Assembly: GCF_044324875.1 (NCBI RefSeq) | Contig: NZ_CP172185.1 | Direction: 5' to 3' (one strand) | DNA from: Escherichia coli | GTDB taxonomy: Bacteria > Pseudomonadota > Gammaproteobacteria > Enterobacterales > Enterobacteriaceae | DNA: 64,000 nt | Part shown: piece by piece, positions 45,778-46,308 of the stretch | Position numbering within the stretch: the stretch's first letter is position 1 | Layout of the letters: each line of letters opens with the position of its first letter | Translations under genes and position numbers: made by a program | The notes under the pieces: model-generated | Seen by the model: the letters and a program-made list of their open reading frames with translations, nothing else | Databases searched by the model: none | Told to the model about the DNA's origin: nothing

Positions 45778-46308
45778 ATGAGTTCTGTAATGAAATTTTC
45801 TGTTGTTAATGCAGTAGTGCTGCTGTTGCTGATTGTACTTACTGGTGTTTTTTATATGAAAAAGTCAAAAGAAATTGCAGTTGTTAATATCGATGCTATT
45901 TATAATCAGTCTACCGCCGGAGACATGGCCAAAAAGCATCTGAATGAGGTTAAGAGTATTCTTGAAAAAGGATATGAGGATGCGCAAAAAACATTCGCAG
46001 ATAACGCGAATAAAGAGGCGCTGCTTCTTGATGCCAGACAAAAACTGGAACGACAATATGTTATTGAGGAAAATAGCGCAAAAATGGTGTTATCCCGTGC
46101 GATAGATAATGCCATAGGCACATGGAGAAAAGACAATCCTAAAAATATTGCCGTATTGTCTTCAGGTGTTGTGCTTGCGCATAACGAGTCAGCTGATATC
46201 ACCAAAGAAGTCATGACTCTGGTTGAAAAAGAAAATCTGGTTTTTAATAAATTACCCAAAGTGGAAGTGCACAATAAGAATGAAGAGAAACCAGAACAAA
46301 GTAAGTAA
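45778..46308 (+). CDS. Skp/OmpH-like periplasmic chaperone
   Basis: 176-aa ORF with N-terminal signal/anchor; KEIAVVNIDAIY and C-terminal VVLAHNESADITKEVMTLVEKE resemble Skp (KIAIVNMGSLF ... [20 protein letters not shown]). Confidence 0.6.
   Translation: MSSVMKFSVVNAVVLLLLIVLTGVFYMKKSKEIAVVNIDAIYNQSTAGDMAKKHLNEVKSILEKGYEDAQKTFADNANKEALLLDARQKLERQYVIEENSAKMVLSRAIDNAIGTWRKDNPKNIAVLSSGVVLAHNESADITKEVMTLVEKENLVFNKLPKVEVHNKNEEKPEQSK

Follow-up and report, generated by a model that had tools for sequence, protein, structure and literature searches.

The 64,000-nt stretch of Escherichia coli chromosome analysed here (the window) carries, directly behind the gene for the giant autotransporter adhesin UpaE, a small gene whose product is almost certainly a divergent member of the Skp/OmpH family of periplasmic chaperones. 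We put at roughly 55% the probability that this Skp-like protein serves the autotransporter as a dedicated helper, that is, as a divergent periplasmic holdase of the Skp family, a reading that draws on gene linkage and sequence comparison. The window matches the dsdC-ipuB-ipuA-ipuR-upaE island beside the tRNA-Arg(CCU) gene argW at 98-100% identity, and the two genes at issue are the following.

37817-45730, plus strand: upaE, encoding a classical type Va, AIDA-I-like autotransporter adhesin of 2637 amino acids (NCBIfam beta-barrel and AIDA-I/ECSE_1600 matches; RefSeq name); the presumed client.
45778-46308, plus strand: the Skp/OmpH-like gene, ATG start, 176 amino acids (RefSeq WP_000100042/43, "OmpH family outer membrane protein"; C_RS13725 in strain CFT073).

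UpaE, named "phase-variable autotransporter adhesin UpaE" in RefSeq, combines an AIDA-I-type passenger with a C-terminal beta-barrel. An extended signal peptide region (ESPR) can be read at its N-terminus (MNKIYKVIWNH..W.VVSEL), and the Salmonella orthologue is matched by the Pfam ESPR family. The first-pass annotation had reported a Skp/OmpH-like gene directly downstream of a giant autotransporter gene, and this arrangement is correct, the upaE stop codon and the ATG of the next gene being 47 nt apart. The open reading frame (ORF) is present in RefSeq under varying names ("OmpH family outer membrane protein," "membrane protein," "hypothetical protein"), and a 97%-identical UniProt/AFDB entry is labelled "Chaperone protein Skp."

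The evidence for a link with the autotransporter begins with co-occurrence, which had been put forward as a check on the association of the two genes and was indeed found. Among 5426 complete E. coli genomes the Skp-like ORF and the 3′-end (barrel) of upaE were each detected in 252, at 258 places, the agreement being one of counts and not of genome lists; 250 have at least 80% coverage, and one is on a plasmid. A giant autotransporter gene followed on the same strand by a Skp-like gene occurs in seven loci, representing at least five genetic contexts with different regulators; in the loci outside the upaE island the two are separated by 25-60 nt. This survey of taxa and gene contexts drew on contigs encoding homologues, on tblastn searches of plasmids and phages, and on AFDB names. 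A pattern scan of a one-genome-per-species collection, made with a seven-sequence alignment, found no relative. Apart from the E. coli island, the pair is present in the following settings.

Salmonella enterica subsp. diarizonae: integrase-GerE-autotransporter arrangement, as in the E. coli island.
Escherichia IncY P1-like phage-plasmids: PapI/PapB-type regulators in place of the ipu switch.
E. coli C10: a different island, with the Skp-like copy truncated by IS66.
A relaxase-bearing, plasmid-like contig.
A metagenome contig: the called start is too short, and an upstream ATG restores the hydrophobic N-terminus.
A Yersinia ruckeri plasmid: a 31%-identical homologue that is a lipoprotein, behind a 1675-residue AIDA/ShdA-like autotransporter.

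Within the clade sharing at least about 40% identity, a giant autotransporter gene lies directly upstream at every readable locus except one (L004, considered below). On these grounds we favour, with a little better than even confidence, the view that the Skp-like gene and its giant AIDA-type autotransporter form a mobile two-gene cassette, as part of the explanation preferred here. A match in the record for "Escherichia phage GER2" (MG710528) was rejected as an instance of phage carriage, since the record includes the flanking chromosomal ipuA-ipuR-upaE island. The split upaE of that record (2447-12531) bears the label "long tail fiber proximal subunit," which is either mis-annotation or assembly carry-over.

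The Skp-like ORF is a real gene, since it is under purifying selection (pairwise dN/dS of 0.13-0.33 for five homologues of 43-76% identity) and is full-length in approximately 250 complete E. coli genomes. Its relationship to Skp is remote. As a single sequence the protein gives a marginal and partial match to Pfam OmpH (PF03938; E = 0.0041, residues 33-118); NCBIfam and a phmmer search of the PDB returned nothing meaningful, only chance matches; and the gene was not detected by tblastn with E. coli Skp as the query. Sub-threshold hits to NCBIfam RseP and SctR and to Pfam DUF1993 (E = 0.0013) were set aside as noise from a helical, hydrophobic sequence. An exhaustive profile search yielded 218 representatives, from which a 66-sequence alignment was built. 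Pfam OmpH is matched by 43 of the 66 family members at E ≤ 1e-3 and by 63 at E ≤ 0.1, and the 66-member profile finds the OmpH chains of the PDB at E of about 1e-4. Compared by hhalign with E. coli Skp, whose sequence was confirmed against PDB 1SG2, the same profile gives a probability of 92.7% and an E-value of 4e-7 over 124 columns, with the whole of mature Skp aligned. Every annotation among the AFDB50 neighbours is Skp/OmpH.

The AlphaFold2 model of the monomer made from the 66-sequence alignment has a predicted local distance difference test score (pLDDT) of 93 and shows a small beta body interrupted by a long alpha-helical hairpin, or tentacle, which is the fold of Skp. It replaced a first model from a seven-sequence alignment (pLDDT 74.6), for which the Foldseek matches to Skp in the PDB were not significant (E of 0.5-2). 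Taken together, the profile and the predicted fold place the protein in the Skp/OmpH family with very high confidence, so that the first-pass annotation of a second, divergent Skp-like gene, and its expectation that structure prediction would return a Skp-like fold, are both borne out. So is its remark that the housekeeping skp lies elsewhere: the window has no second OmpH-like ORF, and in the E. coli sequence NZ_CP134663.1, where the two genes coexist, canonical skp (850,655) and the Skp-like gene (3,256,012) are 2.4 Mb apart. That sequence is one of three PLSDB "plasmid" records (with NZ_OL790696.1 and NZ_CP141089.1) which, at 4.8-4.9 Mb and carrying skp, are evidently whole chromosomes.

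Three parts can be distinguished in the protein.

45796-45858, plus strand: hydrophobic segment, codons 7-27 (FSVVNAVVLLLLIVLTGVFYM), 21 residues, uncharged; a probable uncleaved signal-anchor.
45871-46227, plus strand: Skp-fold domain, codons 32-150, with a predicted strand at residues 32-36, helices at 38-44, 46-72, and 79-119 (the tentacle hairpin), a strand at 123-128, and a helix at 142-150 with a Skp-like "DIT" motif.
46228-46305, plus strand: C-terminal extension, codons 151-176, with the motif F156..L159-P160-x-V162; conserved in the family and absent from Skp.

The N-terminal segment is strongly hydrophobic (Kyte-Doolittle mean of 2.67 over 19 residues), and its uncharged span measures 21 residues against 17-18 in the signal peptide of Skp, according to which of two ways of counting is used. 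Seven clade members share no positionally conserved (-3,-1) cleavage site at the end of the segment, and the Salmonella orthologue has none past residue 14. AlphaFold2 models residues 3-27 as one continuous helix, which just four residues separate from the first strand. Because the 21-residue hydrophobic segment has no conserved cleavage site, it is probably retained as an uncleaved membrane signal-anchor. At the other end of the protein, Skp and the OmpH chains of the PDB stop at about profile position 150, beyond which F156 and P160 are nearly invariant in the 66 sequences and the pLDDT stays high through about residue 165. H54, Q93, E97, and W116 are further conserved residues.

Measured against E. 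coli Skp (HlpA/OmpH; PDB 1SG2 and 1U2M; PF03938), with which it has no detectable pairwise similarity, the protein differs as follows. Its tentacle is approximately 20 residues shorter, Skp and OmpH carrying insertions relative to the family profile. Its mature isoelectric point is 7.05 (net charge of about 0) where that of Skp is 9.5, and the corresponding values for the tentacle are 5.8 and 10.1. It has the conserved extra 27-residue C-terminal extension with F..LP.V, and whereas Skp has a cleavable signal peptide (AQA|A), its own N-terminus offers the 21-residue hydrophobic segment without a conserved site. The gene for Skp belongs to the core genome and sits in bamA-skp-lpxD; that for the Skp-like protein follows upaE in the dsdC-argW accessory island and is found in 4.6% of E. 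coli genomes. We know of no autotransporter link for the solved OmpH proteins such as Caulobacter CC_1914, a point on which no search was made. Identity to CC_1914 (PDB 4KQT) and to the OmpH structures 9YJT, 9YJU, and 9NHX is 12-15%, and the solved chains end where the C-terminal extension begins. SkpA (PDB 8GL8), from the extended translocon of type 9 secretion in Bacteroidota, is 13% identical; it comes from another phylum and secretion system and is part of a solved complex.

One part of the first-pass annotation must be given up. It had tied the second chaperone to the unusual size of the passenger, but the shorter tentacle lends this rationale no structural support, and a DNA search found no Skp-like partner for E. 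coli autotransporters of similar size such as EhaA. On these two results we rejected the idea that the gene exists because its passenger is so large. Three features had not been described in the first-pass annotation: the C-terminal extension, the probable anchor in the membrane, and a conserved hairpin between the two genes.

The hairpin lies within the intercistronic gap.

45738-45762, plus strand: stem-loop with a perfect 11-bp G+C-rich stem and a 3-nt loop, 7 nt past the upaE stop codon and 15 nt before the ATG of the Skp-like gene.

The surrounding 53-81 nt have a folding energy of -24 to -25 kcal/mol. A hairpin occurs at the same place in six of the seven autotransporter/Skp-like loci. 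When the six stems are tabulated in register (by script, because MAFFT put the hairpin of locus L003 out of register), compensatory double changes appear at 8 of the 11 positions, and 65 of the 66 pair cells are Watson-Crick. The structure has no U tract and was not reported by an intrinsic-terminator scan; Rfam gave no match in 45500-47000; and promoter-like sites ahead of the Skp-like gene show no excess over shuffled sequences. Co-transcription of upaE and the Skp-like gene is plausible, since the two share a strand and are separated by this 47-nt gap alone, with no excess of promoter-like sites and no U-tract terminator. We infer that the hairpin is a read-through stem-loop that may stabilise the upstream message or attenuate transcription, which would set the ratio of adhesin to chaperone; it may also be a processing site.

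These features bear on whether the gene has any part in autotransporter biogenesis at all. It could be a hitch-hiker, either a decaying paralogue or a small membrane protein belonging to the island or mobile element that has simply stayed next to upaE, and many database entries are indeed partial or frameshifted, while the C10 copy is cut by the IS66 insertion. Such a reading is very unlikely in view of the purifying selection on a gene that is intact in about 250 genomes, the compensatory changes that conserve the hairpin, and a synteny that persists in homologues with as little as 31% identity, on chromosome, phage-plasmid, and plasmids alike, and under three regulatory set-ups.

More distant members of the family (22-30% identity) are found in Desulfovibrionaceae, Synergistota, Oxalobacter, and many Enterobacterales. 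A lipobox is present in 69 of 138 full-length distant representatives, mostly of unassigned taxa, and 29 of those 69 have Asp at +2. In Enterobacterales, Asp at +2 is an inner-membrane retention signal, to which residue +3 also contributes. Membrane tethering thus looks like a family trait, by signal-anchor or by lipid. In Erwiniaceae, family members lie between dnaX and apt, either alone (L023-L025) or directly after a BamA paralogue of 805 amino acids, whose score of 1412 bits (cut-off 1181) is that of a full-length BamA. The latter arrangement was seen in three loci.

7109-10726 (L018), Pantoea coffeiphila: BamA-paralogue/Skp-like pair.
7113-10714 (L021), Erwinia sp. JUb26: BamA-paralogue/Skp-like pair.
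4113-7654 (L026), metagenome: BamA-paralogue/Skp-like pair.

With dnaX-ybaB-recR-htpG on one side and apt on the other, the inserted genes stand apart from the canonical rseP-bamA-skp-lpxD cluster and look like a second BamA/Skp pair. One further distant member adjoins the gene for an RTX protein. Since the distant members adjoin a BamA paralogue or an RTX protein gene or stand alone, the family as a whole is, to judge by its gene neighbourhoods, a Skp paralogue linked to outer-membrane-protein biogenesis, of which the autotransporter cassette is a sub-branch.

A number of observations weigh against a dedicated role. The more distant members just described have no linkage to an autotransporter. 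In the close clade, the 43%-identical relative at locus L004 (826-1392 of a metagenome contig) has no autotransporter in the 825 nt upstream. This homologue has a clear N-in signal-anchor and lies near genes for type 3 secretion (PrgH), a lytic transglycosylase (SLT), and a GerE regulator; no other close relative was seen away from the autotransporter cassette. The partners also diverge at different rates: the Salmonella Skp-like protein is 63% identical where its autotransporter is 85% identical, and at locus L003 the corresponding values are 43% and, relative to UpaE, 86%. So much more rapid a divergence of the Skp-like protein speaks against contacts that are specific and co-evolved. Nor can Skp-like client binding be assumed, since the tentacle is shorter than that of Skp and lacks its basic charge. 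Two published studies of the locus (PMC6083910 is one) describe a two-gene ipuR-upaE operon and do not mention the Skp-like gene, and our literature search found no study of it.

The weightiest of these points comes from expression of UpaE in a K-12 background; to our knowledge, and according to established gene maps, E. coli K-12 does not have the upaE island. Battaglioli et al. (2018) cloned upaE with a reverse primer ending at its stop codon (TTAGAATATATATTTAATACC; PMC6083910), which is the reverse complement of positions 45710-45730 of the window. Expressed alone in E. coli K-12 MS427, upaE gave a band at the predicted 271 kDa and surface immunofluorescence, and the cells formed biofilm and bound extracellular matrix proteins (PMC6083910). 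As UpaE is surface-located and functional from upaE alone in K-12, the Skp-like gene is not required for display, at least when UpaE is overexpressed in cells that have their housekeeping chaperones. The experiment speaks to necessity, and not to efficiency with and without the Skp-like gene (PMC6083910).

E. coli C10 presents the reverse of the Salmonella and L003 cases, its autotransporter being only 43% identical and its Skp-like fragment approximately 80-94% identical at the DNA level. Within E. coli the Skp-like ORF is also the more polymorphic of the two, identity of at least 99% being found in 69 genomes for the Skp-like ORF versus 239 for the barrel. The pairing is thus kept while either partner is swapped; on these comparisons the partners are shuffled and are not tightly co-evolving, which fits a class-specific, promiscuous binder better than a lock-and-key partner. 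The first-pass proposal of a dedicated chaperone for this autotransporter is thus supported in part: the association stands, with linkage in seven loci and identical counts in E. coli, while display in K-12 without the gene and the loose co-evolution of the partners count against the proposal in its strong version.

The same observations would suit a general-purpose second Skp, an additional holdase of broad specificity that takes up the load of outer membrane proteins or the envelope stress arising when the 271-kDa adhesin is switched on, and that would protect the cell and may act on many outer membrane proteins. A promiscuous binder of this kind fits the fast divergence and free swapping with respect to the autotransporter; UpaE in K-12 does not need the gene; and the wider family is not tied to autotransporters, as its members alone at dnaX-apt, behind the BamA paralogue, or beside the RTX protein gene attest. 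We nevertheless regard it as unlikely, because the close clade has an autotransporter upstream at every readable locus but L004, by counts the gene and UpaE co-occur completely in E. coli, and a general chaperone would have no need to travel in a cassette with one class of client.

The only dedicated helpers that have been reported, SadB and TpgA, serve trimeric autotransporters, and the Skp-like protein is homologous to neither. SadB, a trimeric lipoprotein of the inner membrane, assists SadA, a trimeric autotransporter with an ESPR (PMC3953254); it improves the display of SadA and is not a general factor (PMC3953254). As a working analogy, it too is a small, membrane-tethered periplasmic protein whose gene lies beside that of an ESPR-bearing enterobacterial adhesin. 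TpgA of Acinetobacter sp. Tol 5, the periplasmic helper of the trimeric autotransporter AtaA, likewise has its gene downstream of that for the giant adhesin, with which it is co-transcribed, and it raises surface display. It differs in being monomeric, in having BamE-like and OmpA peptidoglycan-binding domains, and in acting at the outer membrane, and is unrelated to Skp. The Skp-like protein may be regarded as the first candidate dedicated helper for a classical autotransporter.

SadB has been proposed to act by prolonging inner-membrane retention, and the ESPR borne by UpaE is linked in the literature to transient retention at that membrane. These points, with the probable tether and a predicted linker of only four residues between it and the body domain, would be in keeping with a membrane-bound retention or timing factor that keeps either the autotransporter or its beta-domain back at the inner membrane and slows or restricts export, for instance so as to coordinate it with the beta-barrel assembly machinery (BAM) and the translocation and assembly module (TAM) or to avoid premature folding of the passenger, and so behaves as a negative or kinetic regulator. 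We consider a role of this type distinctly improbable: the fold is that of a known holdase, and UpaE displays normally without the gene, which means that there is no obligatory checkpoint.

Under the reading that we prefer, a dedicated holdase helper, the following course of events can be envisaged. Read-through from the phase-variable ipuS promoter would make the Skp-like gene the third gene of the ipuR-upaE unit, and the hairpin would lower or stabilise transcript levels such that there is less chaperone mRNA than adhesin mRNA. The N-terminal segment would remain as an inner-membrane anchor, a part that a lipid anchor would play in distant relatives, with the Skp-like domain on the periplasmic face of the membrane, trimerising as Skp does. 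There it would capture unfolded UpaE, most plausibly the C-terminal beta-domain or the emerging passenger, as the ESPR-delayed precursor leaves Sec, and the capture would limit aggregation or loss to DegP before hand-over to SurA/Skp and BAM/TAM. The efficiency of display would be raised, the Skp-like protein being non-essential because the housekeeping chaperones can substitute for it. In its most specific form, which we advance tentatively and rate below even odds, the proposal is that a distinct subfamily of tethered Skp paralogues (signal-anchored in Escherichia and Salmonella, lipid-anchored elsewhere and then often with Asp at +2, with a short neutral tentacle and the F..LP.V extension) provides giant ESPR-bearing type Va autotransporters with a dedicated "launch-pad" chaperone, in a two-gene cassette with stoichiometry set by the hairpin.

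The switch region upstream of upaE comprises three further genes.

34907-35476, minus strand: ipuB, tyrosine invertase (RefSeq annotation of the matching locus).
36225-36854, plus strand: ipuA, tyrosine invertase (RefSeq annotation; PMC6083910).
37172-37792, plus strand: ipuR, LuxR/GerE-type regulator, encoded first in the published ipuR-upaE operon (RefSeq annotation of a 99%-identical locus; PMC6083910).

The invertible promoter element ipuS overlaps the 3′-end of ipuA and the spacer up to ipuR, and full-length IpuA corresponds to the OFF orientation of ipuS (PMC6083910). In the window (36225-37172 region) ipuA is a 209-codon ORF, equal in length to RefSeq IpuA. The upaE gene of CFT073 (NC_004431.1; locus L022, 1-1453) is flagged by RefSeq as a frameshifted pseudogene, although full-size protein has been detected in that strain (PMC6083910); the flag may stem from a mistake in the sequencing of the 2002 genome or from a difference between strains.

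Between the Skp-like gene and argW (62080-62154) lies a mobile element of approximately 15 kb (~46765-62154), its left border being taken as the end of the match to E. coli 042 (query position 1765); in E. coli 042 and CFT073 the argW tRNA is only about 0.4 kb downstream. Just 3′ of the Skp-like gene, at the edge of the inserted element (46982-47574), is a toxin-antitoxin pair composed of genes for a MazE/AbrB-like antitoxin (82 amino acids) and a MazF/PemK-like toxin (114 amino acids; NCBIfam MazF, E = 1e-26). The insert also contains a P2-family capsid homologue (47618-49030), the IS21 genes istA/istB (50345-52763), two tyrosine recombinase genes (54053-55093 and 60639-61943), and an 897-codon ORF without a family match (55060-57753), and has the look of a satellite or integrative element sited at argW.

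The family label of the Skp-like gene is known from databases, while the cassette, the anchor, the extension, and the hairpin appear to be undescribed in the searchable literature. Classical autotransporters are usually presented as needing only general periplasmic chaperones together with BAM/TAM. Should the gene prove dispensable, it would simply be an accessory Skp paralogue, already labelled correctly in databases. If the proposal is right, classical autotransporters would have their first described dedicated helper in the periplasm; the idea of a dedicated helper would extend to type Va secretion and provide a handle on how ESPR-bearing precursors of 270 kDa cross the periplasm. Co-expression of the Skp-like gene might then improve autotransporter-based surface display of large passengers, and a third gene may belong to the phase-variable ipuR-upaE unit published for uropathogenic E. 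coli.

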